A stretch of DNA of 64,000 nucleotides from Blasia pusilla (GCA_050084515.1 CM114271.1:20212001-20276000), one strand, 5' to 3'; counted from the stretch's first letter, positions 3,251 to 39,600 are shown. Translations and numbers: made by a program. Notes: generated by a model from the letters alone, not told the origin.

Positions 3251-3740
3251 TCCTGCCTACCGGAATAAAAAATCCGCTCCACGAATTCACACCCCTCCAC
3301 TCCAATTCTCTGCACCGCTCGCTCTCTTCCGCGCTCAATTGCTCGTCCGCCTCCCATCCACCCAAAGCGCGCGTGATTTCAAACGCAGAAAGGAAAACTG
3401 ATTTCCTTCTGAACCATTCGCGAATGGCCTGTCGATCTCGTCAGTCCCGAGCATTGAGCAAACCTCGCCCGCGACGAAACGGAGAACGAGGTCTTGTCCG
3501 TGGAGGATCCATGGATCGATCGAGCCCAGCAACTGATCCACGACAATAGGACTAGGGTGTCATCGAACGCATTGTCACTTTACCGTGGAGCCAGCAATCG
3601 GACCTTCCAACCACACGCGCCAGAAGTTCTCAATTATGAAGCTCGGGCGAGAATGGCCGACAGATTCTGGAATCCCAAACTTTGCCGGCCGAGGGATTTG
3701 CAATCCTGTGTCGGATCCCATGCATAGAGAGGGTTGCCAT

Positions 3741-3838
3741 AGTGGTTTTCTAGGTGTCACGGCTGTTGGTGAGTTTGGTGGTTAGGGGGAGTGGTTTTCT
3801 GGGTGTCACGGCTGTTGGTGAGTTTGGTGGTTAGGGGG
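3741..3838. repeat. 49-bp tandem duplication
   Basis: agtggttttct(a/g)ggtgtcacggctgttggtgagtttggtggttaggggg occurs twice in tandem with one mismatch. Confidence 0.95.
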
Positions 3839-4147
3839 GAGGAGGCCCCATTTTGCCTTTCAGCTCACGGGTTTTTGGTTTTCTATGCCTTTTAAAAAAA
3901 TAAATTCTGATAGGTTTTCCATTAACTTTTCTATTAAAATGGATCTCCCTCTATTCTGTTAGGGGAAGTCCTCTTCTTTCTTTTCAGTGCCCCCATCTCT
4001 CTTTTCTCTGGGTTTTTTTTTATTGAAGTTTATCCTTCAAGTGAATATGCGCCATTGCCCTTACGCCATTACCTACTTGAAAGTAGTTATGAAGTATAGA
4101 GTGGAAAATCATTAATTTTCCATTTGACAATCTAACCTAAATGTAAA

Positions 4148-4938
4148 TCTCTATATATACGAGTGAAAGAGGACGGGATTTGAGAATCGTATCTTCTTGT
4201 GTTGACAAGCGAATATTTTTTGCCTCCTCTGGTGATTTTATAGGATTAAGCAGAACATGTGATTTATTTTAGCAAGTGATGTGTCTTTATTATTGTACCC
4301 TATTTTTTTTTCTATTATCGAAAAGTGCCACCTCGGTATGATGAGCTGATTCGGCGACACGTGTCAAAGGGTTCAAAACAATGTTGCCCCCTTCGAAATA
4401 AGTAACCTAAAAAGTTTTAGCTTAGGTTTTCATAACTAGATTAAATTTATTTTTAAATGTAATTTTCTAATTCTTCAAGTATTTTTTCTAAGAATCCCTT
4501 GTGGTCATTGTTTTTTTTTTTCAATTTTGAAAAAAAAAAATTTTGCTAAAATTTGAATTTTATAAGGAGGAATAAGTCATTATCTTAAAATTTAATTTTA
4601 GAAAAGGTTCAATTTTTAAAATCCAATCTTCATGAAATCTTCCTAAGTCTCCTTCCTGTTAATTATTTTTTTCCATACAAATTTTTTAAAGGCTTCTGCG
4701 AAAAAAATTATAATTCTTATTTTCAGGTTTAGTTTGGAGGAAAAATTGAGTCATGTTTTGCAAAAATGATTAAAATCTATATTATTATGGAAGAGTTCCC
4801 TTATACGAGGTGCCATCCTTCCTAGTGATATCTATCTTTTCTGGCCTCTTATTGATTGACATGTGTCGTTCTCCTTTAACTTTGAAATCCGAGCATGTCT
4901 GCTTTCATTCATCCGTGCAAAGCATGGGCACTGGCTAG
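4148..4938 (+). mobile_element. Non-autonomous Helitron
   Basis: 5' A|TCTCTATATATAC at 4147/4148. 3' hairpin ccgtgc-aaa-gcatgg (4913-4927) followed by gcactggCTAG|T (CTAG 4935-4938), a typical plant Helitron terminus. Interior is AT-rich and non-coding. Confidence 0.65.
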
Positions 4939-4940
4939 TA

Positions 4941-7900: not shown

Positions 7901-8720
7901 TCCAAGTTTCATCTTCATACTCGTATTTGGAAGTAGAAGAGCTCTTATATGATCGAGATGACTTACATGAACAAGCTAGGTTAGGAGAGACAACTTTGAA
8001 TGATGGACAAAAGTTGATTTAGGATGCTATACACAATAAGCTTGATATCATCATTGCCAAGGATTCTACATTTAGTTTAAAAAATATTCTTCGTGAATGA
8101 ACCTAACGGAACTGGAAAAACTTTCGTATACAATCTTCTTCTTGCAAGTATATGAGGTGTTGGACGTATAACTTTAATTGTAACTTCATCGAGAATAACA
8201 ACTTTGTTGTTAGATGGAAGATACACTATCCATTCACGTCTCGAGATTCCAATCAATGTAGATGGAAGCTCTACTTCGAGTAAGTGTCTACCCAAATCAT
8301 GACTGCAATTCTTTAAAGTGGTAAGAAAATCTCTTGCCCAAATTACTAGTATCTTTGTTTTTTTTTGGTTTTATAGTTTACCAATTAAAAGCGAAGGTAC
8401 ATGCTTAATTCAAAGGGTTTCACTTAGTGTGTGGGATAAGGCACTATGACTTACCGTGCATTTGAGACTGTAAGTTGTTTCTTCCAAAACACCATGAGAG
8501 GAATATTGGAAGACTTGAAATATATTTTATTTGGTGGGAAATTACTAATCTTTAATGGGGATTTTAAAAAAAAAAACCAATTAATAATGAAGCTTGTTGT
8601 GTGGGATAAGACATCGACTCACTACTAGTAAATTACGTTTGAGGCTGTCAATTACTCCTTCCAAACTTCCACGGTAGTAGTAATGGAAGATTTGGAGACA
8701 AACCTTTTATGGTTTTTGTC
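4941..8720 (+). mobile_element. Degenerate autonomous-type Helitron (RepHel pseudogene), 3' truncated within the helicase
   Basis: Helitron_like_N motifs (LPSSFSGIPRHMHQLYQDTMAIVRHLGKPN, TMMCNPKWEEI), HUH motif FQNRDLSHVHIL near 6240-6280, KYLYKYVYKG near 6715, RTLHGVVYPTFRE, PIF1 P-loop GTGKTFVY near 8108, FGGKLLIFNGDF. Many stops and frameshifts; both ends are approximate. Confidence 0.9.
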
Positions 8721-9182
8721 ATTTTTGGGGTAGTTTACTGGTAATTAGCAAAGCTTCATACTTCAGAGAACTGCGCTTATTATATCGAATTAGGCATTAT
8801 GATTTAGTTTCATATATTTGAGATTGTACATTGTTCACCCTACATTCTCCCCCTTAGGGTAGAACCTACTATTCAAATGTCCTAAGCCAAAGATGCCCAG
8901 TTTAAGTACAGCAGAGAGGATGCTCTCCTCTAAACCCTAAAAGCCTATCTGCCTATTCTACCCATCAAAATGTGATTTGCACCACGACTTTAAGCCATTT
9001 ACTGACAACACTTTCGCAAACTGTTCCAACTACAATCTGCAGATTGCCTTTACCTGCTACCATTTGCATATTGGCTTCTTCTGCACCCACCTGTACAAAG
9101 CAAAATATGGGTAAAATACTGATTTGTGGCATCCATCCCTAATCTAATGATCCTGTATGTACACTTGTGCTCAAAATTTTCT

Positions 9183-12100
9183 TTACACCATTCGGGTATT
9201 CTTTCGGGAAGGTGATTCAGGCCAAACCTGGATGGGATCCTCATTGTTGCATTTGGTTGGGTATGAACTATGGTAGCTTCTGAGTGGCGAGTCTGTCAAA
9301 TCTACTACCTGCCCTACTTTCAGGGTTTCTTCTAGCTTGTTGCTAAACAGCTCTCGCTTGCGCTTGGCCAAAACATTGGGCAAGCACATTGCATTTGTAT
9401 TGGTGGAGGGTTCATAGTCAGAGAGATTCAGAGGAGCTGCTTGACTTTGGCCACTGCCATTTTCTGGTGCATTTCCACATGGTTTCATGTAAGCATGCAA
9501 ACTGGGCTGCACTTGGGAGATCTCAGCATGATTTTTAATTGGGGATGGACCCACTTCCATTGATTTATCGTCTTGTCCATCTATTACCTGCTCCACGCAA
9601 TGTACAATGTTTCAATATATTTGATGACTAGGCAACCATTCTGAGGGCACACACTCCGAAAAAAGTACAACTGTCTTCACGAGTGAATAAAGATGACATC
9701 AATGAGAAAGAGGGATACAGTCATGATACATCCAATAGTGAATTAACCCAAGCCCTTGGTTACATTAGGGCCAAAACTTGAATAAGTATCGTTCCCCAAG
9801 ACTTTGCTTTTGTTCTATGACCATAAGGATAGTAATTAGTACCTGGCCGAGAGTTTCCAGCTTGTGTCTTACAGTATCCCTGTCAGATTGGGGAGTTGCA
9901 AAAGAATCAGTCCAACAGAAAAACATTCAATATAACATACTTCAAGTCTCTGTCACAAGAAGTAAATTGTTGGACAAAAAGATTCTGGACACAGCTTTGT
10001 TATATAACCAAGTGGTCTGAATGTACTTTCCCCTCAGAATCATCACTACATACCCTAATTAGCATTCAGCAAGTGACCACATTACAATCAACACCCTTGC
10101 ATTTGTAGTGTCATTCTATACTGGTGGATTGGTGGTAACTGTAAGCCATAATACAACTTTCACTGGGTATGAGATAAATTTGTGCGCTTCATTGAAGGCT
10201 ACTCTCCAAACTACTGACTTGAATTTTACCACATGATATTGCAGGAAATTCAGGGGCTGAAAAAGTTGCTGAAGTACCAGATTAAGTCATCGATGGTGTC
10301 ATGTGCGTGTAGGTAATAGACATTGACAGACGATGCCTGTCAATTGAGTAACAATTATGAATACCAGACAGAAGAGGACGGCTATTTAAATTCAATGTTT
10401 GAAACATGCTTAATAAACATAAAAGTAACAGCAGTGATAAGGTTCTCTAACCAGTTCAACCTGTACCATTAGTACTATCTATCCATACAACTAGAAAACA
10501 GAGAAATGAGAATTTTCAAGTCATATGCCCTACCTGGCCAATCCGGTGGGCACGATCTTCTGCCTGTACTAAGTCTCCTGGTGTCCAAGTCATTTCAGCA
10601 AAAATGACAGTGGATGCTGCTGTCAATGTCAAACCCACTCCAGCAGCACGGATTCCAAGCTGTATGACCTCTCAGTGCAGTGGATGCAAGATGTTAGCAA
10701 ATGTTACTAGACCGTACTTGTATGAAAAAGTAGGGGGATCTCAAAGATCAAAGTACTTGATCTAGGTATGAAAGGAGACCCAACTCTGGTCTGGAGTAAA
10801 CTTGTACATACCACTGCTGCCATGATCTTCTCATCAGTTTGAAACTTGCCCACAAGATCTGCCCTTAATCCTGATGGTGTCTTTCCATCTATACGGATAA
10901 ACTTCACCTTCTTCTTCTGCGAAGAATTCAATCAGACGTTTAAGAATCTTCATACATCCTTTTTTTCGGGCAATTTCTTGTCAATTCCAGTGTTAAGATA
11001 TTCCTTCCCAGGGGTACTGTAAGGGTATGAAGCACTGCTACATTGGGTAATGCCAACCCTCCAATGAGTTCTACACCACCTTACACTGTCCTTAGTGGCC
11101 AAAGGTCAAATTCTAGCTCTTGCATCACCAATCTACCAGTATAGAATGAGCACACTACAGCGTCTAACTTTGGCTGAAAGGGCTAAGATTGAAGTACCTC
11201 TAGTAGTTCTTGAATTCCATTGAGCATTGTTTGATGATGGGCAAACACAAGAAATTTGCAGCCTCCCTGCTCAGTAACACATCATGATGAGAACGCCATC
11301 CTGTGAACTTGAAAGTTGAAGTTGCATGTAAGAAACAGTTATGATTCATACCTCAATCATTGTTTCAAGATACTCTTGCACAGCTGGAATTTTAACTTCA
11401 GCTGACTCACTGTATATCTGAGAAACAAAGTTAACACAAACTTAGCCTGGCAACAATCTGATGCAGAGCAATGGCAGCACCTGGTCATGCTGGAAAATCT
11501 CATCTACAGGCTCCAAGAAAAATATTAGAGAGATGGTATTAAAAGCTTTACAAGAAGTCATTATATGAAGAACTCTGGAGATAGAGCACACTTGAACAAG
11601 CTGGAAAGGTTGTACACGCACAAGAAGAGCTCATGAGAAGAAAAAAAAATGAACCTTTGCAAGAAGTTGCCTCTCCGTCATATTTAAGTTATCAATTTCC
11701 TCTTGATCTCCCAGTTGAATAGCAGTTCGAATTGCCTTCTTTGTATCCTCCAGCTGTTGTTAAAACAGACACCGATACGATCTTTGCCATTAGACTTTGG
11801 GAAGAAGTCTTGTGAAGTCAGATGAGAATAAGTAATGCATGGTCAACTAGTCCGTGGAGATTCTGACACAACAAGCAGGACACAACAAGCAGCCCATACA
11901 GCTTTCCCTGCTCACAACATCTGGTTGGGAGCTGAATGCAGATAAAATAGATCCTCCACAGCCACCTAGATCTTTCCAAGCAATTCCATATCTCAGCAAA
12001 GACTGCTAATCATGCATACTTAGGTCAAACAAAAATCTCCTTGGATTGCATGAGCTTTCAGATTCATGAGAGCTGTGCATACCTCAATCATGAGTACTCG

Positions 12101-22500: not shown

Positions 22501-24438
22501 TATAACTTTTGTAGAAGAGATAAGTTTATCGTGAGTAATGTCATAGAATATCAAATACTTTAAAATCATCAGATATCAGATTGCCAAAAAAAATTAGTTG
22601 GCTTCTACTCTTAACGTGGAATAACATCACATAGGCAAATCCTAGTGCAAAAATAGATCTAATTACCAAAAGACAACATCCACTTATAGTTGAACCTTGA
22701 ATTTTATGAGCAGTCATGGCATACCCAAGTAAAAGAGGAAAGGTTTTCTTAACATATTTGCGGTCCGAATCATACCTTAATGTTGCAGACTTTGTCCTAG
22801 ATATAGTAACAAACTTACCGCTTGAGAGAATCATAACCTGAATTTGTAGTATCTCATTATCTTTATACATAAGCTCAACAACTTTTGCTAAAGAGCCATT
22901 AGCATCCTATATTCTCAATTTGATGTTGGATGTTAGCATGACTATGCAATGAAGGGCTACAAAAGGCAACTGGTAAAATCTCTTGAAGTTAAAAATTGGA
23001 GACATTTGGTTGTACTTCCAATACCTAACCATGAATGAAATAAAATGTTTTCCCACACTCCGGTGGTTCTTTGAAGAGTAGTAGACCAGATTTGATATCT
23101 TTGAAGAGTCAAAAAAGTTCGGATTGTTCACTATTTAGATTAGCTATGTCATGTTCAATAGGATGTGTTATGTCTGAAGTAGACTCATGTGTCAGTGGAG
23201 ATGATTGTGCTGTCATAAGGTCTGCAATATTAACCTGTAGTTCATGTTGTAAAGATAATGTACTTTTGCAAGGATATCTGCTACATGGACTTGACTCCAT
23301 AGATTTTTGAATCCATGTGCTTTAACTAGTATATAAGCATCATCGATAGATTTAATTATCTGCCTGAGAATACATTCATGGATATAATTCCATTTGATTG
23401 CAGATGAGGTCAACATACTACTTTCAAAATGGAACTTAACATTGGAAAGAAGAACTACATAAAAAAACTCATTGGTTTGGTGAAGTGGATGAAATTCAGT
23501 AAACCTAAGTACACGGGTAGTTTTTGAGACTATATTACCTAAGTTGTCTAAGCCAATGTAAGGTGTAATCTACTTTGGATAAGTTTTCAAAAACTGATAA
23601 TTAGTCCAGTAGTGTGTGAAGGTCAAATCTTCAAAAGCTTGTGGTCTATTGGAATATAGGAAAATTGGATGAATACATAGAACTGAAGCATCTTTATAAA
23701 AGAAACTCCGTTGTTTCGTCTTTTAGGATAGATCGATGAGATCTAGTAGAGAGCCTTTGCGATTAGTGAAGGACAGGCTCCGGAGCTCGAGATCGACCTG
23801 TTGAGGCCCCGGGAACTTGAGACAACATGCTTCCCCTTTGTTTCGGCTCATTTGGAGCCATATTAAGAAACTTACTATTTTGGATAAGTGTTGTTTTGAA
23901 GATATGATCAAATTTCTATTTTGGGAAGTAGCCCTTGACCTCCTACATCAGGTCAAGAGCCAAGGAGGTGACTTGGGAGCATAGGTTACCATGGAGAGAG
24001 CTTGGGAGAGGGGAGGGATATACTTCAAGGAGAGAGAGCTTGAGAGCTAATTCTCTCTTTGTTGAACCTCTTCGCATAAGGCGGCGGAGCTATGGTCCTC
24101 CTTGTCTTGTGTGTGTGTAACCCAAGCCTCTCATTAGGAGAGTGGGTTTGGTTTGACATTGAGAGAGACATGTGAGAGCTATGGTGTTGTGAGCGAAATT
24201 TGACCTTATTTTACAAAGAGAGAATGAGAGCGTGAGAAAACTTCAATGGAGGAGCTTGCTAGTTACTTGCTGTTGGTGCAAGTGGGGGACCGCTTTCCCC
24301 ATTCAGTGGCTCATGGGAGTGCTTATCGGACAAGCGCTACTTGTTTTACTATTTTTCATTGCCGATTTTTTATGGGGAAGAGTGGCGTGCGGAAGCGCTG
24401 CCCAAATTTCTGTAGAGATGAATTTTGAGGGCAAATTT

Positions 24439-25058
24439 CCCCATTCCAGTGCTCTCGAGCCGCGTTCGACCGTTGTCGCGTTGGTTGCCATTGCCGCCAT
24501 TACGGAGTGGACGGTTTTCCACGACAATTTTTTATTGTCTCACTTGAGCCGCCACCTCGTACTTTGTTGTGGCTGCCGCCGTCAGCCTTCACCATTGACA
24601 GTGTGTCGTCAACGGTCTACTGTCGCCTTCCGCTGTCAATCGTCGATTGTCGCCACCGCCTAGCGTCGCTTAGAGCCGCGTTTGACTGTTGTCCCATTCC
24701 AGTGCTCTCTGGCCGCGTTCGACCGTTGTCCACCGTTGGTTGCCATTGCCGCCATTACGGAGTGGACGGTTTTCCACGACAATTTTTTATTGTCTCACTT
24801 GAGCCGCCACCTCGTACTTTGTTGTGGCTGCCGCCGTCAGCCTTCACCATTGACAGTGTGTCGTCAACGGTCTACTGTCGCCTTCCGCTGTCAATCGTCG
24901 ACTGTCGCCACCGCCTAGAGTCGCTTAGAGCCGCGTTTGACTGTTGTCCACCGTTGGTTGCCATTGCCACCATTACGGAGTGGACGGTCTTCCACGATAA
25001 TTGTTGATTGTCTCACTTGAGCCGCCATCTTGTACTTTGTTGTGGCTTCTTCCGTCAT
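24439..25058 (+). repeat. ~254-bp tandem repeat (2 near-identical copies plus a partial third) in the leader of the outer element
   Basis: Units start cccattccagtgctctc at 24439 and 24693; the partial third copy runs to about 25058. Confidence 0.92.
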
Positions 25059-25595
25059 CGCAATTTCGTCATGAACCCGTGATGGAAGGTGACCTCGGGT
25101 TGATGGTGTTTGAGTTTTCATTTCATTCTGCTAAGTTGTGATTGGTAGTCGCTCGACGATGATCGAGTACCGTGCCATAACACCCTTAGCCGCGTTGTGC
25201 CGCTTGTGGCCGCACCGCACCGTCTCGATCGCGGAGCCGCTCCTTCACTAAGATGTAGAGCGTATGTATTTCTACATACGCTCTACACCTTATTGATATG
25301 CCGCACAGTGCCGCATCCCATTATCGAGTGCCGTGCCGTTTTTGTAGCCGTTACGTGCCGCCAGTGCGGCACCATATCGCTAGATTTGAACCGCATAATG
25401 AGGAGATTTGAGCATCGTTAGTATCAAAGGGATACGACTGGCTAATTGGAGGATTTTGTCGTCATGGTCGAGTTGGGGTCGAGATTTGTAGTTGTTAAGG
25501 AGCGATCAATATTTTTTCAGGTTACCCATTCTGGTCTTTTGCCTGTACGTGGTGTCGTGCGCATAAACATCGCTACATAACATACATCGCTGTCA

Positions 25596-25783
<188 letters not shown>

Positions 25784-26661
25784 TCCCATGCTAACTTATG
25801 GCATCCAAATAACAAGACAAGAAGTACCAAAATATCTCCAATAAAATAAGATCCAATCTCTCTCACAACACCATAGTTCTCATATGTGTGCACTCTAACA
25901 TGTCTCTCTCAATGTCAAACCAAACCTACTCTCCTAATGAAAGGCTTGGGTTATACACACAAGACCATAGCTCCGCCGCCTCATGCCAAGAGGTTCAACA
26001 AAGAGAGAATGAGCTCTCAAGCTCTCTCTCCTTGAGGTATACCCCTCCCCTCTCCCAAACTCTCTCCATGGTAACCTATGCTCCCAAGTCACCTCCTTGG
26101 CTCTTGACCTGATGTAGGAGGTCAAGGGCCACTTACCAAAAAATAGAAAGTCGATCATATACTCAAAATGGTACTTACCTAAAATAGCAAGCTCCTCAAT
26201 ATGGCTCCAAATGAGCGGAAACGAAGGGGAAACCTGCTCTCTCAGGTTTCCCGGGGCCTCAGCAAGTCATCCTCAAGCTATTGAGCATGTCCTCCACTAC
26301 TCACGAAGGCGCTCTACTAGATCTCATGGATCTATCCTAAAAGACGTGACACTTATCGTGCGCATACACATCGCTACACAACATACATTGTTGTCACCTA
26401 ACACACACACAAACACGCACGATCACATGCTAACTCATGGTAAATAAACAATGAGACAAGAAGTACCAAAATATCTCCAATCGCCCTCCTAGTTGGTGGT
26501 TAGATCCCTCTAACTCCAGATTGCCATCTATCCCTACTTACCATGACATACATCTCTCGGACGCTAAGAGCAAGAAGGTCGGGTGTTCATGTGGCCCCAT
26601 CGTTAGTCGCCTTCTTGTCATCCATGTCATAGACACAAGTCGGAATGTAGAACTACCTACT

Positions 26662-27900
26662 CTATGTACATCTGGGACACATCCATCGTCCTTGAGGAAC
26701 CCTAGTGAGAGGTGGCGTCAAACATGCCATATGCCATCCTCTCAAACACCCATCATAGACTAGCATAGTGGTTGCACCATGGGCGGAACCACACAATACA
26801 CACCGCAAGCCTGCAAGAACTATTACGTAACTCGGATCAACTGTACAGTCAATACTTGGAAGATGATATGGCGCACAGTTGCGCATATGGTCCTTCCAAA
26901 CCATACCATCTTGTCCCTCCAATAAGAGAACACTGGATGGCAAAACCTCACACACTCTCAAGACGGTGCACCATGCAGTCACATCCAACGTCGTGGGTGC
27001 CGTCTACTGCAACTAGACATAATCTCCCTGATGAAACCTCCAGATAGTAGGTCGATAACCACCTCCCCGAATAGTCGCATACCTCAACGTATCCCGATGT
27101 TGCGCAATCGCCAAGTTCTCAAACGCCATGGGCATCACTCTCCAAAACAACTCAGCCCTCAAAGAACATGCTCGCATCCATATATTAGGGTCATCAAGGT
27201 TCAACACCTCACTAGTATCTTGACGAATGGCCGTTGGTAAATCTGGCTCTCGGCCATAAAGCAACAAGTACGGCGAGAAAGATGCTAAGGATGCCTGCCT
27301 GTTGAATCTGTATCCCATCGCCAACCACGGCAACTAAAGGTCCCAATCTCCTAGGTGACCTCTCTGCAAGCCATACTTGCGTAGTCCTCTCTTCATCGTC
27401 TGCACAACCGCTCCGCTTGTCCATCCGCCTCAGGATGATCTCGCGAAGTAGTGCGGTGGTCGATCAGTGCCTGATCATACAAGGCTTGAAACTCCCTGCG
27501 GAACTCTGTACCTTGGTCTATCAACACCTCAACTGGTACGCTGTAACGACTCAACACTCGATCTAGGAAGGCATAATCTACTCCCTCACTCGCTTTGTCA
27601 TGCAATGCAACCAACTCTATCCACTTCGAGAAGTACTCGACCATCACCAACACATAACAACTATGGCGCTCCATCAAAGGAAAAGATCCTGCAAAATCCA
27701 AACTTCATCTATAACCTAAACCCATGATTGGAAGTGGATGTAACTGTGGAGTTGGAGCATTGAATGATGCTCAGACTCGATCATATACCATGCATCTGGC
27801 AATAAACTCCTGAACATCAGTGTGCATGCCTCGCCACCAATATTGAATCTCGAGCAAGCTGTATGTCCACTTCACTCCAAAATGACCCAACTCCTCGTGG
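26662..27900 (-). pseudogene. Integrase (H2C2 zinc finger, DDE core) with C-terminal PHD finger
   Basis: HEELGHFGV...YWWRGM...C near 27900-27790; core 27720-27200; PHD CVLCGSAHGATTMLVYDGCLRGWHMACLTPPLTRVPQGRWMCPRC at ~26805-26665. Confidence 0.9.
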
Positions 27901-28279
27901 GATGACGCACCAAACGTGCTCTCTACGAAGGATGAGGCACTACACGCACTCTACCATTCTCTCACACTTGCAATATATGTGTGCCCTCCCATCGAAATTG
28001 TCTGGCTCGCTGTAGGATCCGATCTCGCTCTCTAGCACCCACTGTGCTCGTGACGCTGCAAGTACGCAGGTACTCCAAGACCAGTCCATCGTCGTGAATG
28101 TCTTGGCCACCTGTTGTCTCCTCACCGGCCTCTGGATCTAAGGACTCTCCATCAGACCTCGCCATCGAAGTCTTAGCAATCTGGCTCTCCGTAGCCAACA
28201 AACCCAAATAGGCTGACACATGCCATCCTGGCACCAACTCCTCATCACTCTCACCATGCCAACGAGCTCTAGTCGCAAC

Positions 28280-29700
28280 TCACTGAATCGAGCATGGGTT
28301 ACGGCTCAAACCATGTGCATCCTGGTTGAGCATCCCAGGTCTATGCACCACTTGGAAGTCATACTCCTGCAACAAAAGAGCCCACCTCGCAAGCTTCCCT
28401 GTAAGCTTGTTGGACTCCATCAACAACTTAAGTGGTTGATGATCAGTAATGATGGTAAAGGGATTGCCGAATATATAACATCTAAAATGTGCGACAGCCC
28501 ACAATGCAACCAAGCACTCACCCTCATACGAGCTATACTTCGCCTCTACAGCGTTGTTTGAGCGACTAGCATAAGCCATCACAAACTCTCTACCATCATC
28601 ATCATGCTGGGTGAGCACGGCTCCAAGCCCCAACATGCTCCAATCAGTATGCAACTAGAAAGGACGCCCCCTGAACGATCTCCTCAATATGGGCGCGAAA
28701 GTCAATCTATCCTTGAGCATCCAAAATGCTCTCTCTTGCTCATCCCCCCAGTGCCACTCTTGATCCACCTTGGTCATCAAGGTTAGCGGCTTAGTAATCG
28801 AACTAAAACCCTTGACGTACCGTCAATAGAAGTTTGCCAATCCCATAAATGCACAAACTCGACTCACATCTGTAGGGCGTGGAATGCGTGAAATAGCCTC
28901 TACCTTCGTCTATTGCACACCAAGGCCCCCAGGGTACATCGTGTGACCCAAGTACTCAATCTGGTCATAGAAGAACTTGCTCTTGCTTGAATGTAGCTTC
29001 AGCCCATGTAACTGCAATTGTCGAAACACCTCCTCTAGATGTCCCTCATGCTCCTCAACCGTGGCGGTAAAGACTATGATGTCATCAATATAATACCTAG
29101 CAAAATCCAGACATGCCAAGATTCTATCCATGACCCTCTAAAACTCAGTCGGGGCGTTCTTTAACCCGAATGGTAAGAACCGCCACTGGTACAAACAATC
29201 CTTCCCGTGAGGATCGATGCCCCAAAATGTTGTCTTTTGCCTGTCCTCCAATCTGATAGGCAACTAATGGTATCCGACTCACAAATCCAATGAATTGAAG
29301 ACCTTTAATTTGCATGCCCAATCGCATCAAAGATCTCCTTGGGGGTGGGCATGGCATACCTATCGGACTTTGTCTGCCGATTGATAGGTCGGTAATCTCC
29401 ACACATCCGCCTATCCAGTTGCCATGCATATCCTTCTTGGCGGGCATGATAGTGGCAGATGCATACTCTCCATGCGACATCTCCATTAGTCCTGCTCCAA
29501 CCAAGGCCTCCTACTTTGAATCAGAGCCCTCTCCATGTCATTGTACCTGTAGGGTCGTCGGAAGATCGGCGTGTCACTCGACAACTCAATGCGGATCCTT
29601 GGACCCTTCAACGTACCCAAATCATGCATACTAAATGCAAAACAGCTCCTATAACTCCTAAGGAACTAGTGTATCCGACGCTGCTCTCCTCCTGTCAACT
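28280..29700 (-). pseudogene. Ty3/gypsy reverse transcriptase and RNase H
   Basis: EYASATIMPAKKD, YQWRFLPFGLKNAP, YYIDDIIVF (~29075-29095), IEYLGH, RNase H ORF 28280-28654. Confidence 0.93.
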
Positions 29701-30029
29701 TAGGGCCCATATATGGCTCCCAAGTCTCCATCGTGACTACGGTAGGACTCTCCGGCGTTGGTGTCGGTGGTTGCTATGGTGCAACCCCGTCTCAGACAAT
29801 AGAACTCTTATCTCCGTGTGCAGTACCCGGAACCACACTCAATGTTGTGGCTATCATCTCCTGGCGTACCTACAAAATATCCCAAGAAGTCCAAGGGTGT
29901 CTCTCTTGATCATCCTTGGTGTGTCGATCTCCTGGGTCTTGCCCCCAACCGCTGCCTTAACCGCCTCAATAAGCATGGGGCTCACCAACGCAATAAGCTG
30001 TGATCTCTCGCGTCCTCAAACAAAGCTGC

Positions 30030-30995
30030 TCAGCTACTCCTAAGCTGAAAATCCATATCAAACAGTTCAGGTCTATTTCCTGACCCAAGACATGACGTCG
30101 TGATGCCTCTGATAGTGACGGTACTACCGTCACTCTTGTGGGGAATCCCATCGCTCGCTCTGACTCATCGGCGTTGGGCTCCACCAACCTCTGTACTTGG
30201 TCATCCCAAACCAAGCCAGGTTCGTCCTCCTTAAATGCATAGGAAGCGGGAAAACCCACCAATGTGGGAAAGGCTGCCCGTGGCCTGCCAATCCTGTTGA
30301 CCACAATCAACGGCGGTCGATCATCTAGCCTCACTGATTGTGATTGACGGCCCGGATCCAATATAGAATCCACCAAAAAATTGGAGGGGCGCTCCACTCT
30401 CGCATATGCCCTCCGTAACACCTCGTGTGGTACCAAGTTGGTCCACCAAATACGGAGGCGATGTGCTTGTGAACCCACACTCGCCGCATCTAACAACAGT
30501 GCCGGGCCGATCCATGCGCGCACTTGATGTGCACTCGTCACCACGCGGGACCTCGAATTGCCCAAAATTGGCACATTCTCCATAATAGATGTTGGAGAAC
30601 GAGACTAATGCTCTTGTAAATATCGCAAGATCCGCATCATCTCCCAAAATAACCTAGACGGAGTGTCAACTAACCCGCTATCTCGTCCAACACTCAATTG
30701 GCCCTGACACGGCCAACCAACAATGACCAAGTCTATGGTCCCTACCCGCTCCAAGTCCTCCATCCCCACCAATGAAATGTCCCTCGGTAGGGAACTCTGG
30801 TAACCCTGAATGGCGGACATAGACAACAAGTCGGGAAACGGAGGCGTAACAATGCCACATGGTGAAGTGAAGCGTGCCTTGCAACATCATCAATCTCCAT
30901 ATACAGGTACTGCTGCACGCGCACTCCAGCGTGCAAAATTACAGCTAACCCAGTACTGATCCCTCCAAAGAGATCCAACACCCGAATACCCTTCT
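30030..30995 (-). pseudogene. C5-cytosine DNA methyltransferase domain (DNMT3-like) embedded in pol
   Basis: Motif I RVLDLFGGIS (~30955-30985), II YMEID, IV DLVIVGWPCQG (GWPCQG 30701-30718), VI ENV (30572-30580), VIII AHRLRIWWTNL (~30446-30463), IX-X ESERAMGFP...RRHVLGQEID. One frameshift and one stop. Confidence 0.9.
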
Positions 30996-31429
30996 CTGGG
31001 ATGCACCACACAATCGGGGTGGTGTCCAAAGGGGTCATAGCAGCACTCCTGCATACTTGGGGTTCCTTTGACCCGTCACACTCTGGTGCAAATATCTCGC
31101 TCCACGCAGTTTGCACATGCTCAGTGGCTAAGCGTCGGAGCTCCTCAGTCGAGCCCCAAAGTGGCACCTCTCCTCCACGGACTAATGCGGCTACCATGAC
31201 ACTCCTCTGCATAAAAATGTCAGGAACGGGAGTATCCTCTGCATGGACATGTCCCTCAATAAAATCACTAGGCCAAGTGATGGCACCACTAAATGCTGCT
31301 AAGGTCGCCATCTCTCTTGGCCGTCGCTCGATCATTGCACCTCTGAATCGAATAGGTAATGAGCTAAGGCGCCCATTATCTGACTGCCATCCTGGTGTGT
31401 AGGACGCTGACTCCTCCCAGTAATCCAGG

Positions 31430-33688
31430 GAAAACCCCATCGGGTATAACACTGCTCCACCAACCAAGACATCGTAGGACTCTGCATCAGTCACTATCGC
31501 CTTGGCTTGCACCACATACTCATCTGTACGATGTCTCGGGCGAATCCTCACCACGACCTCCTATCGGGTGATATATTGTGTGGTACTCGCTCCATCCAAG
31601 GATGTCTGTATCCGGAATGGACAACGCTCCACATCGGCTCTCGTCAAGCCCAATCCTCTGAATGACGCTTTCCCCGACATCAGGGGTTGCGCTCTTGGAT
31701 CCAACAAGACGCGCTGCGGACTAAAAGCTCTACCTCCGGGACTCACCAACTGGAAGACCTCTCCTCGGTTATCCACCAACAAAACACCAGGAGAAGCCAT
31801 GGCACGCTCTATCGCGGGTCTAGCGGGCATCTCTACCATCCTAGCAGCCGCAGCCTGCTATGAATCTGACGTAGACGGCCCGAGCATCCGCTCCAAAGGC
31901 AGGTCCATCACCTCCTCTCCAATCACCTCTGAACGTGATGCAGGAACTCCAACTCCACGCTCACATAGTGTAGCGGCCAGCCAAAAAACCTCGGCGGGCG
32001 TACCTCCGAACGTCATAACATCGGAAGCACATAACGGTGACCATCCCCAACAACGTACTTGACACATGCCCCTCCTGAGCATCAGCAATAGGAGTCGTCG
32101 TACTTGCTTCTCCCATCGCCCTTCATGCCTGCACACCAACAACATCACCAACTCTCCAGGAACTCTGATCAGGACCCATTGATGGGGTCCTCATTGCTTC
32201 AGACAACGTGAAAGATTGAGGAAGCCTAGTATGTTTTCTGGCTTCCCCTTGATGTGGATCCAACTCCGCGGCTGCTCCACGCATCACAACTACGGTGGCC
32301 TCCATCTGGGAAACCTCGTACATCCAACCAGGATCCTCCATATCTCTGGCTGCTCCATATGATGTCGATGCCATAGATCGGGCATCGGGTAACCTCAATG
32401 CCATAGCGGCAATCTGCTCCTGTAGCTGTTGTATCGGAGCAACCATCGTAGTCTCACGTTTGGCGTCTCCCTCGACGCGTCTAGGTGGTGGGACTCTACC
32501 TCCTCCATAGGAAACTCCACCACCCTATCGGGCAACTCGAGCTCCTCGTCCCCCAACGAGACCACCTGGTGCACGATCTCTAGGCCCACCCAGACCGACT
32601 ACTCGCTCTGGTGCCCTCTCTGGCCCTCGGTCCGGACGTAACTCAAGATGTAAATTGAAACACCTAGCACGTGTATGACCATACCTTTGATAATAGTCAC
32701 ATTGATAACCTCCTGGTGCAGCACCATCTCCTCCTCCATGCTGAGGCACACGTCCATGACCCTGACGAGTGCAATCGCGCTGATGATGGGCTCCACCACA
32801 TGACCAACAAGTAATTGTAGACGGCTGCTGTTGAGCCGTATATGAAGGCGGAGGTCTCTGTGGCACGGCCTCCCGATATCCTCCTTGAGCTCGTGGTGCC
32901 ATAGTCGACCTATCTCGGAGTCCACGTTGCGGCATTGGTGGTGTAGACAATCGTGACTACTCTCACCCAGAACCCATGGTGGCTACGCTCTCCTCTGCCA
33001 TGTTGCGCTCAATATTCTCGGCGGTCCTAAAAACATCTCTCAACGTAGGGGAGGTTTTCATAAGAAGCACCCCCTCCCGCACCTGTGTCCGCAGGGTCTG
33101 GTCCAGCATCACGTGACATGACTGGATAGCCTGAGCCTCTGTCACTCCTTGAGTGACGTTGATCAACCGGCGCAAGCGAGTGTAAGCCTCACACAAACTC
33201 TCACCCGGGCGCCTCTGGAAGTCGTGGATGCTTCGCAACTTCTCTGTCCGTACCCCCTTGTAGATCGCCCTCGACTCAGCAAAGAACTCAACCACGGGGT
33301 TGAACCTGGGACGAACCCGACTAGATGGTGCAACTGTTCCAGTGCGAGTGACCCCTCCTAAAACATCACTAGTGGAAGAGGAAGTAGGCTCTCCTGACTC
33401 CTCCTCATCTGGGAACGGCTCCGTCCATGACACATAATTGGGGTCATAGTAGAGTCGCCATGCCTCAATCTCCTGGGCATATGTGTGGGAGAACTCATGG
33501 AAATCGTCCATGGGCGCCCCTTCTAAATGTTGGAACATACCGTTCCATGCTCTAAACGGGTTGAACTCTCTAGAGCTCCTAGCCCACTGTGAGTCATACC
33601 AACTTCTAAATTCTTCAATGAAGTCGTGTAGCTCTATGGTGCCTATAGCACCTGAAAACCTACGCGGTCCTCTACCTTGATCGTCCAT
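31430..33688 (-). pseudogene. gag (two zinc-knuckle-like motifs) and aspartic protease of the inner element
   Basis: Gag-like FQRRPGESLCEAYTRLRRL; CWSCGGAHHQRDC and CDYYQRYGHTRARC; protease-like RVLLDPRAQP (degenerate LLDSGA) and YDVLVG flap. Confidence 0.8.
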
Positions 33689-36600
33689 CTCGTACGCTCA
33701 ACTGGTAGGACCACTCAATGTGTATGGTGGATCACTAACACACTCCCCCTCGTCTGAAGAAGACACAGAAGGAGATCGAGGTGGTCTCTCACGTGGAGAC
33801 CCTCAAAACCTGGCACCATTCCGGGTAAACCCTCCAAAGCTACTCTCAAGTCCACAACCTCGCCTCTCAAAATCCCGAAAGGACACCGTGATGGCCCTCG
33901 TGCCCCTCTCACATGATCATTCTCAATCTTGTAAGTAATTCCTCAATCACTCAAACTAAACATGCGGCACTCAATCTACACTTTCTCACTAAGATGTGTG
34001 CTCTACGGCAACAAGCAACGTGGTGCGGCAAATCAATCAATCTATCGTCTCATCGACAAACCATCCTCAACTCTGGACATCCCACACAGGTCTATGTCCC
34101 CTAAACCCATACATCATCGATACTTCTAGCATCAGCACGAAATCCAATATCCCAAATAACTTCCCAATATCCGGAAATCCCTCACACGTGCAGGGTAAGA
34201 GACCAGAATGGGTAACCTCACAATAATGTCGATGGCGCTCCTAGGCAACTAAAATTCTCGATCCCAGCTCGGTCGTGAAGACAACTCCTCCAATTAACAA
34301 GTCATAATCCTCTCGTACTGACATTGTTCAAACCTCCTTGATGTGTGGTGCAGGTCCAGCGGTCTGGTGCAGCACTAGCGGCACGTAACAGCTACAAACG
34401 GCACGGCACTTGGCGGCATATCCTCCTCAATCAGCAATTCACACGCTCTGCACCTTAGTGAAGGAGTGGCTCTACGATCAAGATGGTGCTGTGCGGCCAC
34501 AAGCGGCACGGCGCGGCAATTGGCGGCATGTTGCGGCTACGGGCGTCACAACACAGTACTCGATCATCGTCGAGCGGCTACCAATCCCAACATAGCAACA
34601 TGAAATGAAAACTCAAACACCATAACCCGAGGTTACCTGCCATCATTGGTTGATGATGAAGCTGCAATGATGGTGGCGTCTTAACCAAACTACGTGGTGG
34701 CGATGCAAGTCAGAGAATCAATGGTGGTCGTGGAAGACCCTCCACTCCATAATGGCGGCAATGGCAACCCAAAGGATGGACAACGGCCGAACGCGGCTCT
34801 GAGCAGCGCTAGGCAATGGCAACGGCCGACGGTGGACGGTGGACGGTGGATTGTGATAGTTGACCATTGATGGCAAACTGTTGACAATGACTATCACGGC
34901 GACGGCCTCCAACGGCACGGCGGCTGGTTTAGGGTTTGAACAATTTAACCCAAAAAAATTGCGTAGGAATGGTAGTTTTGCAAGATTGACCATAATTTTT
35001 TGCTCGCAACTCCAAATTGCACATCGTTTGTTGCACAGCCTGTACAGCTTCAAAATCTACGACAATATTAAAAAATAATTGGGAATCAAATATTCCAATA
35101 AAAACTGATGGGGACTGTTGTAATGCCCATTCTCCTACATAAAATTTGATAGCGCTTCCGCGCTGATTTCTCCCAACAGAAATGTAAAACATGTGAGAAC
35201 ACAAATCAGCAAGCTACATGGTGCTCCCAAGAGCATCCATATGGGGCAACCCGCCCCCATACTCAATCCCTATAAAAAAATTGGTCAGCACTTCCACGCG
35301 CCACTCTTCCACACAAAAAATCGGCAAAGGAAACATCACAAGTAAGCGGCTCTTGCTCCAGTGAGCACTCCCATGAACCGCTGAACGGGGAATATGATCC
35401 CCAACCTGAAAAACCAACTAGTGACCAGCAAGCTCCCCCATGAAGCTCTCTTACTCACTCATTCTCTCTTTGTAAAATAAGATCCAATCTCTCTCACAAC
35501 ACCATAGTTCTCACATGTGTGCACTCTCACACGTCTCTCTCAATGTCAAACCAAACCCACTCTCTTAATGAGAGGCTTGGGTTACACACAAAAGGCAAGC
35601 AAGACCATAGCTCCGCCACCTCATGCCAAGAGGTTCAACAAAGAGAGAATGAGCTCTCAAGCTCTCTCTCCTTGAGGTATACCCCTCCCCTCTCCCAAGT
35701 TCTCTCAGGTTTCCCGGGGCCTCAACAGGTCATCCTCGAGCTACTGAGCATGTTCTTCACTTCTCAAAAAGGCATTCTACTAGATCTCATAGATATATCC
35801 TAAGAGATGTGATAGTGATACAGAGTTTTGCGAGGAGTTTTAGGTCTTATGTGATCAGGTGCTGATCGACCACCGCACCATTTTGCGAGATCATCCTAAG
35901 ACGGATGGACTAGCAGAGAGGGTTGTGCAGATGTTGAAGAGAGGATTGTGCAAGTATGGCTTGCAGAGAGGTCATCTAGGAGATTGGGACCTATAGTTGC
36001 CGTGGTTAGCGATGAGATACAAATTCAGTAGGCATGCATCTTTAACGTCTTTCTCACCATACTTGCTACTTTATGGCCGAGAGCCAGATTTACCTATGGC
36101 CATTCTTCGAGATGTTGGTGAGGTGTTGAACTTTGATGACCCCGATGTATGGATGTGAGCATGTGGGCATGTTCTTAGATGGCTGAGTTGTTTTGGAGAT
36201 TGATGCCCATGGCATTTGAGAACTTGACCATTGCGCAACATCGGGATACATTGAGGGATGCGACTATTCGGGGAGGTGGTTATCGATCTACTATCAGGAG
36301 GTTTCATCAGGGAGTCTATGTCTACTTACAGCAGACGGTACCCAAGATGTTGGATGTGACTGCAAGACGCACTATCTTGAGAGTGCTTGGGATTTTGCCA
36401 TCTGGTGTTCTCTTATTGGAGGGACGCGATGGTATGGTTTGGAAGGACCATGTGCGTATCTGTGCACCATGTCACCTTCCAAAAATTGACGATAGTTGAT
36501 CCGAGCTAAGTAATAGTTCTTGCAGGCTTACAGTGTATGTTGTGTGGTTCCGCCCGTGGTATAGCCATTATGCTAGTCTATGATGGGTGTTCGAGAGGAT

Positions 36601-39600
36601 GGCATATGGCATGTTTGACGTCACCTTTCACTAGGGTTCCTTAGGGATGATGGGTGTGTCCTAGATGTACATAGAGTAGGTAGTTCTAGATTCCGACTTG
36701 TGTTTGTGATATGGATGACAAGAAGGCGACTAACAATTGGGTCACTACAGAGTAGCTCGAGCTATTCCTGAGCGCCGGTAAAAGCTGATGGATCTTCTTC
36801 CTTTAGGGCATGGAACTTTTGATGAGCCGCGCGCTCACAGGTGTCGATGTCCCATTAGTGGGCCCTTCACGGCTCGCTTAGGAAGGAAGAAAGGAAGGAA
36901 GGGTGCCCGCAAGCAAGCGAGCGCTATGGGAGGGAGGGAGGAGGGAGGGAGGACACCCGGCCTTTTTCTCTTAGCGTCCGAAAGATGTATGTCATGGTAG
37001 GTAGGGATAGATGACTATCCACAGTTAGAGGCACCTAACCAACAACTAGGGGAGCGATTGGAGATATTTTGGTACTTCTCACCTCTGTGTTTGGGTGCCA
37101 TGAGTTAGCATGGGATTGTGCGTATTTGTGTATGTGTTTGGTGACAACGATGTATGTTGTGTAGTGATGTATTTGCGTACGATAAATGTCACGTCTTTTA
37201 GGATAGATCGGTGAGATTTAGTAGAGCTTCTTTGCGAGTAGTGGAGGACAGGCTCATGAGGTCAAGGAGGACCTGTTGAGGCCTTGGGAAACCTGAGAGA
37301 GCAGGTTTCCCCTTCGTTTCCGCTCATTTGGAGCCATATTAAGGAACTTCCTATTTCGGATAAGTACCGTTTTGAGTATATGATCAATTTTATATTTTGG
37401 GAATTAGCCCTTGACCTCCTACATCAGGTCAAGAGCCAAGGAGGTGACTTGGGAGCATAGGTTACCATGGAGAGAGTTTGGGAGAGGGGAGGGGTATACC
37501 TCAAGGAAAGAGAGTTTGAGAGCTCATTCTCTCTTTGTTGAACCTCTTCGCATGAGGCGGCGGAGCTATGGTCCTCTTTGTCTTATGTGTGTAACCCAAG
37601 CCTCTCATTAGGAGAGTGGGTTTGGTTTGACATTGAGAGAGACATGTGAGAGTGCACACATGTGAGAACTATGGTGTTGTGAGAGAGATTTGACCTTATT
37701 TTATTGGAGATATTTTGGTACTTTCGCCTTTGTGTTTGGGTGTCATGAGTTAGCATGGAATTGTGCGTATTTGTGTGTGTGTTCGATGACAATGATGTGT
37801 ATGCGCACGACACCTTCTATGGTGAGGATAAGAGTCAATGTATGTGATAGATTGAGACCTATAGATTATGGGTATCTGCATGGATGTTAATAGAGCTTCT
37901 GTGGAAGACATAGACCTGTTGAGGACCATTCTAGAAATCAACTTTAGTCTTATCTCATCTACTCTCCAGAGACCTAGGCATCTGGCAGATTTTGTATCAA
38001 TATCCAAGGAACCGGTGGGTTCAGATTGAAGGGGATACTTTAGGAAAAAAACTCCAATTAGTATTGACGTTGTATGTTCATAACAACTCTCTAGAGAAGT
38101 AATATAAGTGGATGATATGCAATCACATTTCGATGATGAGGAGATAGCCTATAGTAATTACATTTCATTGTTAAAGGATCAATGAAAGGAACTAGTTCAA
38201 GGTTAATAGGTGATGGAAAGCCAAGACAACAATATGGTTTTGTTTGGCTTTTACGTACAACATAAATACCATCTTTGCACTTATGTAATTGTTTTCTCAA
38301 TTCATATTTTAGCAAAGTATCAAATGTCTTCTTTTGAGAGTGCGATAAATTGGGTAGTAACATACCAATAGTCTCTGTGGGTATGTATGTACATATCTCA
38401 GATGTTACTTCGTTTACATCTGAAGGCTCCAACCATGAAATCATGTGATAAGAAAGACTACCCCTACCCTGTAACTCATAACGTAGGAAGTAATTAATCA
38501 CTTTCCCAAGTAAGCGTGGCCCATTGAAAATAAACTGGCTCAGAAAAGAATGTAACCTGGTGTGAAATAATTGTGCACACTCAGCAGAGGCATCTCGCCA
38601 TGTGAAAATCGGTTTAAAGTTTTTCAACAAGGTTTCCATATTTGTGAACTCAGGCCATCGCGTTTCTAAGATTTCATCAGAGGTCAAAGTGAGGAAAAAA
38701 TGTGGCATGCCCCATTTGTGGACCATGGCTTTCAAGTCCTTCAAATGCCTTCTATGCCAAGTTGGGCTACCTGATAATTGGGGACTTATAGAGTATTTAG
38801 AGAGATGAACATACAAATCTCCTTCATGAACATCTGGTTTTTGTTTTCCAAGGTTTTCCAATTCTCTGTTTAGTATGAATGTCCTACTATTTGAACATAG
38901 AGAAATAGATTGACGAAGGTGGTGCATTAATAAGGCACATGGCTTATACAAGGAGAATGGATGGAATAATTTTTTAGAATGATTGCGCAAATACTTGGAA
39001 CACGTAGGGTGACCAATGAAATAACCCCAAAGGTAAGGAAGAAAAAATGGAAAGAGTCTTGTATCTATAGTAAGAAGTAGGTCTAGAGAATTTCCTGTGT
39101 TATCACTAAGTAAACTTTCATGTACGCATGCATATGCACACAACGTTATACTATCATTTTCAAAGATGTCAGTAGATGCACGCCTCCTAACAAGTAGCGT
39201 ATAGGCTACATCGTGTTCATAATATTTAGTTCAGGTTGGTAAGGATCATAACTCATACTAAAGGTTACTTGACCTTTTGCTTGAGACTGTTTTATTATGC
39301 TATTGATTGTTGTAGAAGGAAGTATAACAAGGCCACTGGAAGGATTAGGTAACTCTACTAAGGCTTTGTAGTCTTTGTGCAAGCTATTTATTTGAAGATT
39401 CATTACAAAGATATCCTTCAAATTTGCTGAAAGTGATCTTCCACTTGGAGATAGAGGATCGCTATTATTAAAGACGATAAGAGGAGAGTCTAGGAGAGAT
39501 GTCATATTGAAAAAACCTTAATGAAACCCATTGAACTTCTTCTCAATGCCTATCCTGGAGTCTACTATAGATAAAAGTTGCAGCTCAAGGGGATCAACAC

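Follow-up and report, generated by a model that had tools for sequence, protein, structure and literature searches.

Split direct repeats in DNA methyltransferase-bearing Ty3/Gypsy elements of Blasia pusilla and a candidate route of joined-end insertion

Results

Two Gypsy-type copies with permuted repeats in the Blasia pusilla window

We analyzed a 64,000-nt stretch of Blasia pusilla DNA (GCA_050084515.1 CM114271.1:20212001-20276000), hereafter the window, which contains two decayed copies of a Ty3/Gypsy-type retroelement organized around two repeats, X (~500 bp) and Z (~110 to 130 bp). A repeat search and BLAST across the window located four copies of X and four of Z, all within 23712-37812, and none elsewhere in the 64 kb. 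In both elements, here called outer and inner, the 5' end carries X alone and the 3' end reads PPT-Z-nn-X-Z, where PPT is the polypurine tract and nn a 2-nt spacer. Their features are listed below (PBS, primer-binding site; +, plus strand; -, minus strand).

Outer element
23708-23711, +: left copy of the 4-bp target duplication (CCGT); right copy CCTT at 37813-37816
23712-24213, +: 5' X, start TGTTTCG, followed directly by unique sequence, no Z
24019-24023, +: TATA-like box TATAC
24050-24062, +: X-side arm ATTCTCTCTTTGT, predicted RNA 5' end and self-primer, 31 nt downstream of TATAC
24213-24227, +: predicted self-priming PBS ACAAAGAGAGAATGA, beginning at the last X base; 13-nt perfect complement
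24214-25552, +: 5' untranslated part with 255-bp tandem repeats; aligns with inner positions ~350-1636
35815-37047, +: 3' coding remnant, integrase C-terminus and PHD region
37048-37056, +: PPT aggggagcg, adjoining Z
37057-37184, +: internal Z, ends CGATA
37185-37186, +: 2-nt spacer AA between the abutted inverted ends
37187-37703, +: 3' X, start TGTCACG
37704-37812, +: terminal Z, ends CGACA

Inner element
25553-25841, -: terminal Z, ends CGACA at 25553, expanded (CA)n
25842-26351, -: 3' X
26353-26352, -: spacer AG
26480-26354, -: internal Z
26490-26482, -: PPT aggagggcg
35473-35458, -: predicted PBS; 16-nt complement
~35653-35638, -: X-side arm
35814-35473, -: 5' X, internally deleted

The termini of both copies are a TG at the start of X and a CA at the end of Z. 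X begins with TGTCAC, for which the decayed 5' X copies have TGTTTC and TATCAC instead, and the terminal Z closes with CGACA. Inside the 3' end, the junctions read CGATA-AA-TGTCAC in the outer copy and CGATA-AG-TGTCAC in the inner copy. The target duplications match at three of four positions in each case (CCGT/CCTT, outer; TCAC/CCAC, inner). The outer copy was inserted into a Helitron remnant, which is marked by a 379-amino-acid open reading frame (ORF) with a Helitron_like_N match (38094-39230, minus strand; E 5e-17). A 157-amino-acid minus-strand frame opens across the insertion site when 4 bases are taken out, but not when 0, 3 or 5 are.

These observations agree with an earlier reading of the same DNA, the original prediction, which had assigned X to the 5' end and PPT-Z-nn-X-Z to the 3' end of both copies, at coordinates within a few bases of ours. 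It had also given the termini as TG at the X start and CA at the Z end, described an internal cgata-nn-tgtca, which we re-read in both copies, and taken restoration of the Helitron frame as confirming the outer 4-bp duplication. Its assumption of simple nesting did not hold. The left part of the outer copy aligns with positions 1-1636 of the inner copy and the right part with 8313-10268, and the equivalent of inner 1637-8312 (6.7 kb) is missing from the outer copy exactly at the inner copy's site. The two copies are not a plain nested insertion; a deletion tied to insertion, insertion at the junction of a deletion derivative, and two-site integration are possible sources of the gap.

Local repeat expansions were also observed. 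The outer 5' untranslated region holds tandem repeats with a 255-bp period (24457-25057), of which the inner copy has one unit, and the inner terminal Z holds a (CA)n tract of ~170 bp (25590-25760) at a short TG-rich stretch common to all Z copies.

Coding content and protein relatives

The coding region of the inner copy is as follows.

26662-33697, -: decayed gag-pol
32966-33697, -: gag ORF
32528-32956, -: zinc knuckle
29969-31560, -: C5 DNA methyltransferase (DNMT), motifs LDLFGG and GWPCQG
28913-29510, -: reverse transcriptase (RT)
28283-28654, -: RNase H
27013-27704, -: integrase, zinc-binding domain upstream
26665-27003, -: PHD

Sense frames of the inner copy, with stops read as the letter X, match DNA_methylase (PF00145), RVT_1, RT_RNaseH, Integrase_H2C2, rve and PHD; its antisense frames gave no Pfam match. 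The DNMT domain sits between the protease and RT. The order RT, RNase H, integrase, together with a Gypsy-type RT_RNaseH and an rve core, is that of Ty3/Gypsy proteins. The original prediction of DDE-integrase Gypsy elements with no visible tyrosine recombinase was borne out: rve and Integrase_H2C2 are present, and the tyrosine recombinase domain PF00589 was found neither in the six frames of the inner copy (E up to 0.05 in sense and 0.01 in antisense frames of a decayed copy) nor, by Pfam search of translated frames, in the three sense frames of a relative, L040. The DNMT had not been part of that prediction. L040, which belongs to the distant family described below, encodes the same six domains, including the methyltransferase PF00145. 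Besides gag and protease, the lineage codes for a C5 DNA methyltransferase, RT, RNase H and a DDE integrase that bears a PHD finger at its C-terminus.

The closest protein matches, at 61-76% identity, come from the liverworts Calypogeia fissa and Marchantia polymorpha and are polyproteins or fragments. Liverwort polyproteins carrying PF00145 are 61-68% identical to the window element, a Sphagnum protein matches at 60% identity, and a Klebsormidium nitens protein matches the window integrase C-terminus and PHD region over its full length at 48% identity (E 1e-56). Because liverwort polyproteins share the DNMT, sequence comparison indicates that DNMT-bearing Gypsy elements are abundant in bryophyte-type genomes, beyond Klebsormidium. 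In a more distant relative from an ENA contig (P0023, 1701 amino acids) the order is RT, RNase H, DNMT, integrase, PHD, so that the methyltransferase follows RNase H, whereas it precedes RT in the window element.

Relatives in metagenome contigs

We used the best 80 of 516 confirmed metagenome loci, which were retrieved by aligning the integrase C-terminus and PHD region. They split into a closer family (60-73% identity) and a distant family (43-47%), each with unrelated X and Z sequences. The 50 distant-family loci were reduced to 43 by removal of seven duplicates with identical flanks. Among these 43, the 3' end reads PPT-Z-nn-X-Z (the long form) in 20 and PPT-Z followed by flank (the short form) in 21, and is ended by the contig in 2; the closer family has three long and nine short 3' ends. 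The short form, X...PPT-Z, which lacks terminal repeats, is therefore about as common as the long form in relatives. The spacer is exactly 2 nt in all 23 distinct long 3' ends of relatives, as in the two window ends. At the 5' end, X alone followed by the untranslated region was found in 15 of 15 distinct cases (13 relatives and 2 window copies).

Complete relatives comprise five long and five short elements. Their 4-bp duplications are perfect in six (ATGT, CCTT, CCAA, GTAT, ACTA, TACA), match at 3/4 positions in three and are absent in one. The original prediction had listed two complete X+Z long terminal repeats (LTRs) in most members, or an inconsistent target duplication, as findings that would speak against it; we looked for both, and none of the 15 distinct 5' ends carries Z, while 4-bp duplications recur, perfectly or at 3/4 positions, as given above. 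In one locus (L076, 11230-11390), a long element ends at an upstream copy of the motif CGTCACGACA, 17 nt short of the internal Z, with a perfect CCTT duplication.

Boundaries of the replicative LTR

The canonical Gypsy anatomy, with two identical TG...CA LTRs, a PBS after the 5' LTR and a PPT before the 3' LTR, is not found in these elements: the PPT and PBS bound Z-nn-X, whereas TG and CA bound X...Z. At the left boundary, a purine run adjoins an intact Z start in 49 of 50 distant-family rows and in both window copies, so that the PPT abuts Z and not the TG, as originally predicted.

At the right boundary, the window 5' copies show a perfect complementarity between ATTCTCTCTTTGT (X position ~339) and ACAAAGAGAGAAT..., the latter starting at the last X base. 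Its length is 13 nt in the outer copy, equalled by 1 of 300 shuffles, and 16 nt in the inner copy, equalled by 0 of 300. The 3' X copies, which are followed by Z, were used as a control and gave 7-8 nt only (167 and 69 of 300 shuffles). RNA folds of both 5' regions close the same helix, with z values of -4.2 (outer) and -4.3 (inner). In the distant family, AGTTTTTCTAGAATT pairs with AATTCTAGAAAAACT across the X end, perfectly over 13-17 nt in five of nine 5' ends (0 of 200 shuffles for each of the five) and in degraded form in the other four. In the closer family, where five rows were examined, AGTTCTTTGAGT is complementary to ACTCAAAGAACT just past the X end over 12, 9 and 9 nt in L005, L003 and L004, the last two being one locus. 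In all three families, the X-side arm is preceded at 31-32 nt by a TATA box (TATAC, TATAAAG and TATAAAAGG). A tRNA-type PBS was also considered and rejected: no TGG-initial site adjoins X, and TGGAGGAGCTTGC, ~37 nt downstream, was dropped for its distance.

With the PPT at the Z start and the predicted self-priming site at the X end, the regenerated unit would therefore be Z-nn-X, which these sequence features support well as the replicative LTR. The ends of this unit lack TG...CA; TG and CA are instead abutted inside it, in the commonest distant-family form as the palindrome GACAGCTGTC.

Family-wide evidence from reads

Reads were examined over 35000-37950 in one whole-genome run, taken at ~1 in 100, two RNA runs and one contig set. 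The listing of joints gives 15, each supported by 22 or more whole-genome reads or present in contigs, out of a set that holds 141 more. The whole-genome depth on the element was 2,500-4,500, which implies very many family copies. At 37182, the Z end, 998 reads leave the element with a flank agreement of 0.37, and at 37187, the X start, 1,077 reads enter it with a flank agreement of 0.33. The other four of the six best-supported loose ends agree at 0.86-0.91 and represent private differences of this copy. Thus, the disagreeing flanks at 37182 and 37187 identify the X start and the Z end as the termini of the family. Furthermore, the X end was joined to the Z start in 392 whole-genome reads (a cross-mapped joint), and none of the 15 joints listed links the Z end to the 5' untranslated region. 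The outer copy also carries a private insert of ~207 bp (36746-36952), where read depth is close to zero; family reads skip it (36745 to 36968), with 388 whole-genome reads for the best-supported form.

RNA reads run unbroken in sense over PPT-Z-nn-X at a depth of 134-342 and fall off at the X end. The X-to-Z joint was crossed by 1 and 4 RNA reads, compared to 392 DNA reads, with the RNA depth at ~1/25 to 1/40 of the DNA depth. In one run, 13 RNA fragments stop 6 nt beyond X. Sense transcription of the family was seen in two RNA runs of the same species label, with depth to ~340 from 6-12 in 100 of the runs. Some family copies are probably still expressed.

Homogenization of the repeats and variation at the X-to-Z joint

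The internal Z (Z1) and the terminal Z (Z2) of one element are 90.7% identical, versus 85.8% when Z1 is set against the Z2 of a different element; of 19 elements, 9 have their own Z2 as the best match to Z1 and 13 have it within the top three. This comparison left out L028, whose Z2 is cut. No class-specific columns were found that would tell Z1 from Z2. For three of five elements, the best partner of the 5' X is the 3' X of the same element; in the other two, this pair falls short of the best by 0.002 and 0.010. The four window X copies are too decayed for a comparison of identity within and between elements.

The joint between X and Z2 is altered by small indels in 13 of 20 distinct long copies. 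Seven joints are blunt (CAAT joined to ATACATG), seven are 2 nt short, which is what joining on the AT common to both ends would give, and six are of other kinds (two of -1 nt, one of +1, one of +2, one of -8/+1 and one large deletion). At comparison sites, alterations were seen in 1 of 50 rows for PPT-to-Z1 and in 0 of 9 for X-to-PBS. Well-supported sister copies differ in joint type. On the tree of long copies, blunt versus -2 joints take 6 changes, a number reached by 328 of 1,000 label shuffles, in what is a weak test on a star-like tree. In the window family, 136 reads show the blunt form TTTTA+ATTGGAG and 234 reads a 1-nt overlap form. Judging from these sequences, the X-to-Z joint looks newly made in each cycle. 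In one locus (L049 = L062), X position 76 is joined straight to Z, owing to a large deletion made at the joint or to a deletion that came later.

We also considered whether the variable spacer (GC, AC, AT, GT, AA, AG) is freshly made sequence and rejected this, as its changes are transitions at CAG/CTG positions of the palindrome. Methylated CHG sites are prone to mutation, and the spacer transitions fit methylation-driven mutation. Separate inheritance of Z, as an account of internal CGATA versus terminal CGACA, was likewise dropped: C-to-T changes in relatives lie mostly where G follows, and Z has no class-specific columns.

Discussion

A candidate cycle of joined-end insertion

We consider it reasonably likely that the two copies of the window are old, dead members of a very abundant Ty3/Gypsy family, of a streptophyte lineage, that inserts joined-end cDNA by the following cycle. 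The cycle builds on features observed directly, namely layout, termini, duplications, domain content, the placement of the PPT and TATA box, and the complementarity. Reverse transcription would regenerate Z-nn-X, not X-Z. The transcript would begin within X, ~31 nt past the TATA box, and the first 13-17 bases of the RNA would fold onto the site at the X end and prime the minus strand, in a Tf1-like manner. Plus-strand synthesis would begin at the purine tract adjoining Z, giving a linear cDNA of the form (Z-nn-X)-internal-(Z-nn-X). We infer that integrase works not at the ends of this cDNA but at the inverted TGTCA...TGACA, the palindromic CA-nn-TG inside each LTR. Joining of the X end to the Z start, by a two-LTR circle or by plus-strand template jumping, would yield X...Z-nn-X-Z, and the short X...Z may come from cutting of a one-LTR circle or of both internal sites of linear cDNA. 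Strand transfer would then produce the 4-bp target duplication. The predicted cDNA ends (Z start and X end) differ from the inserted ends (X start and Z end), and a joined intermediate is therefore hard to avoid.

The central proposal of the original prediction, insertion at an internal CA-nn-TG, is well supported by the termini, the 4-bp duplications and the LTR boundaries. Its proposal that Z-nn-X is the replicative LTR likewise gained from the TATA box and predicted self-priming site at the X end in three families and from the homogenized repeats. Its two-LTR circle fared less well: a symmetric circle does not agree with the missing mirror form, and the short form had not been foreseen. A joined-end circle is plausible from the sequences, with its simple symmetric form contradicted by the missing mirror permutation. 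The template-jumping route would yield long and short forms only. For the short form itself there are three readings: it may come from a one-LTR circle, from linear cDNA cut at both internal sites, or from a later Z1/Z2 deletion.

Several observations weigh against this cycle. The mirror form, X-Z-nn-X...Z, occurs in 0 of 15 distinct 5' ends, and among complete elements there are seven long ones (five relatives and two window copies) versus 0 mirror forms (binomial ~0.008); the join or the cut would therefore have to be directional, or only the plus-strand 3' end be extended by template jumping. Short forms could equally arise after insertion, by Z1/Z2 recombination. The whole-genome reads contain no pile-up of read ends marking linear cDNA ends, and no circular or joined extrachromosomal molecule was observed. 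The evidence for the RNA end consists of 13 fragments of one run, and the transcription start is a predicted one. A duplication is lacking in one complete relative, L034, and every copy examined is a decayed one. Both window copies have internal CGATA versus terminal CGACA, which needs two independent C-to-T changes or a subfamily effect; methylation-driven mutation fits here too, but with two independent hits. The 2-nt joint variant lies in an (AT)n context, where slippage is a possible cause, and the star-like tree makes the test of joint inheritance a weak one.

Alternative explanations

The layout itself raises the question of DIRS/Ngaro-style replication without a tyrosine recombinase. 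RNA would then start within the 5' X and end within the terminal Z, the internal Z-nn-X would bridge the cDNA into a whole-element circle, X-to-Z would be inherited via RNA, and the DDE integrase would open the circle between Z and X. The repeat order is indeed that of split-direct-repeat DIRS elements (PMC8969392, PMC5890265), X-to-Z is crossed by a few RNA reads (1 and 4), and the RNA fragments end 6 nt inside the terminal Z. On the other hand, the PPT and the predicted self-priming PBS are placed as in an LTR element with Z-nn-X as its LTR; relative to depth, RNA shows the X-to-Z joint 4-10 times less often than DNA does; joint variants are unclustered on the tree; and Z1 and Z2 show no class-specific differences. 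We regard this reading as unlikely. Recruitment in trans of a tyrosine recombinase coded elsewhere in the genome seems very improbable, even though tyrosine-recombinase elements are the only others known to have this layout: all three families retain integrase domains, and the elements have 4-bp duplications and TG...CA inverted termini, whereas DIRS elements make no duplications (PMC8969392).

A different possibility is that the short X...Z is the primary product, from linear cDNA cut at both CA/TG sites, and the long form rare, or conversely that all short forms are Z1/Z2 deletions. Short and long forms number 21 versus 20 in one family and 9 versus 3 in another, and four of five complete short elements have perfect duplications. 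However, the short form, lacking a 3' X, offers no terminal redundancy for strand transfer, so that persistence of the lineage requires regular long forms, and in the window family the counts of X-to-Z and X-to-untranslated-region reads are similar by a rough estimate. The two directions of this proposal look alike at the sequence level, and we give it a small but real share of the probability. That an ordinary LTR, X-Z, lies behind rearranged copies (5' Z lost, Z gained), or that a solo X-Z sits beside an element, draws on the rearrangement of the outer copy, which lacks 6.7 kb at the inner copy's position. It is hardly credible and is refuted for practical purposes: Z is absent from all 15 distinct 5' ends, the 2-nt spacer is exact in the 23 long 3' ends of relatives and the 2 of the window, the 15 joints listed include none from the Z end to the 5' untranslated region, and the layout is common to three sequence-unrelated families. 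Joined-end insertion by the cycle above remains the reading that we favor.

Comparison with known systems

The nearest described element is KnitGypsy-Dnmt3 of Klebsormidium nitens, in which a Dnmt3-type DNMT forms part of a Gypsy polyprotein (de Mendoza et al. 2018; PMC5890265). The Fig. 4c legend of that paper gives DIRS-type repeats (A-coding-B-A-B) together with Gypsy domains (PMC5890265). KnitGypsy-Dnmt3 resembles the window element in having a DNMT inside a Gypsy polyprotein and an A...B-A-B layout. The comparison is by description, the 48%-identical K. nitens protein may belong to that element, and the hosts differ, in that the window comes from a large-genome organism and its closest named proteins are from liverworts. 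The relevant section and legend of that paper describe no PPT, PBS, termini, duplications, short form or mechanism (PMC5890265). The bare layout is nonetheless already in print for a relative (PMC5890265). Our literature search found no other paper using the name KnitGypsy and none on the mechanism, or on the lineage in bryophytes; the supplements of PMC5890265 and PMC6317226, which may hold annotations, were outside its scope. As far as these searches reach, the anatomy, self-priming, short form, bryophyte distribution and mechanistic argument are new.

With Ngaro, PAT and TOC1/TOC3, the elements described here share the A1-internal-B1-A2-B2 repeat order. A joined or circular intermediate is presumed for Ngaro/PAT/TOC1-type elements. 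Those elements have a tyrosine recombinase and no duplication, whereas we find a DDE integrase, TG...CA ends and 4-bp duplications; the repeat order is thus that of DIRS elements, whereas the other two traits that define them, the recombinase and the lack of duplication, were not found. This order defines split-direct-repeat elements, among which DIRS elements make no target duplication (PMC8969392). Self-priming is known from Tf1 and sushi, where the 5'-most stretch of the RNA itself serves as the primer and pairs with a PBS beside the LTR (PMC7175516, PMC6317226), and has been predicted for plant Tcn1 Gypsy elements (PMC6317226). The likeness to these elements, RNA 5' bases complementary to an LTR-adjacent PBS, is predicted from sequence here. 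They differ in having ordinary LTRs and chromodomains, whereas the present elements have a 13-17-nt arm, a permuted layout and an integrase with a PHD finger.

A further parallel concerns the junction itself, in that GACAGCTGTC of the relatives resembles an LTR-LTR junction. Circle junctions of IS3 and IS30, made from DNA ends at excision, have inverted ends abutted ~2 nt apart and are handled by a DDE enzyme with an RNase H fold. Retroviral two-LTR circles are regarded as dead ends, and the retroviral circle-junction model has been abandoned. The difference from both is that here the junction is coded inside the LTR and would be the normal substrate. More tentatively, and at somewhat less than an even chance, the whole lineage (Klebsormidium, liverwort-like genomes and the two metagenome families) may normally insert joined-end cDNA, with a DDE integrase cleaving a palindromic CA-nn-TG internal to the LTR. 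By analogy, this would amount to an IS3/IS30-like "paste-in" that has converged on the split repeats of tyrosine-recombinase elements.

Implications

In the textbook view, LTR elements with an integrase insert a linear cDNA that is bounded by the LTR ends, and circles are dead ends. The layout described here spans three families of unrelated sequence and thousands of copies. If confirmed, the cycle would provide a natural case of a retroviral-type integrase working at an internal junction, and a mechanistic link of LTR elements to IS3-type transposons and to DIRS/Ngaro. If it is true, the X-to-Z joint, and hence the poly(A) site, would exist at the 3' end only, and each new copy would carry a fresh joint. 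LTR finders that expect two equal LTRs and a PPT beside TG will miss or misannotate this family, including its short X...Z form. The family accounts for a sizeable part of a large bryophyte-type genome, and as the lineage carries a DNA methyltransferase of its own, its life cycle bears on the interplay of such elements with host silencing.

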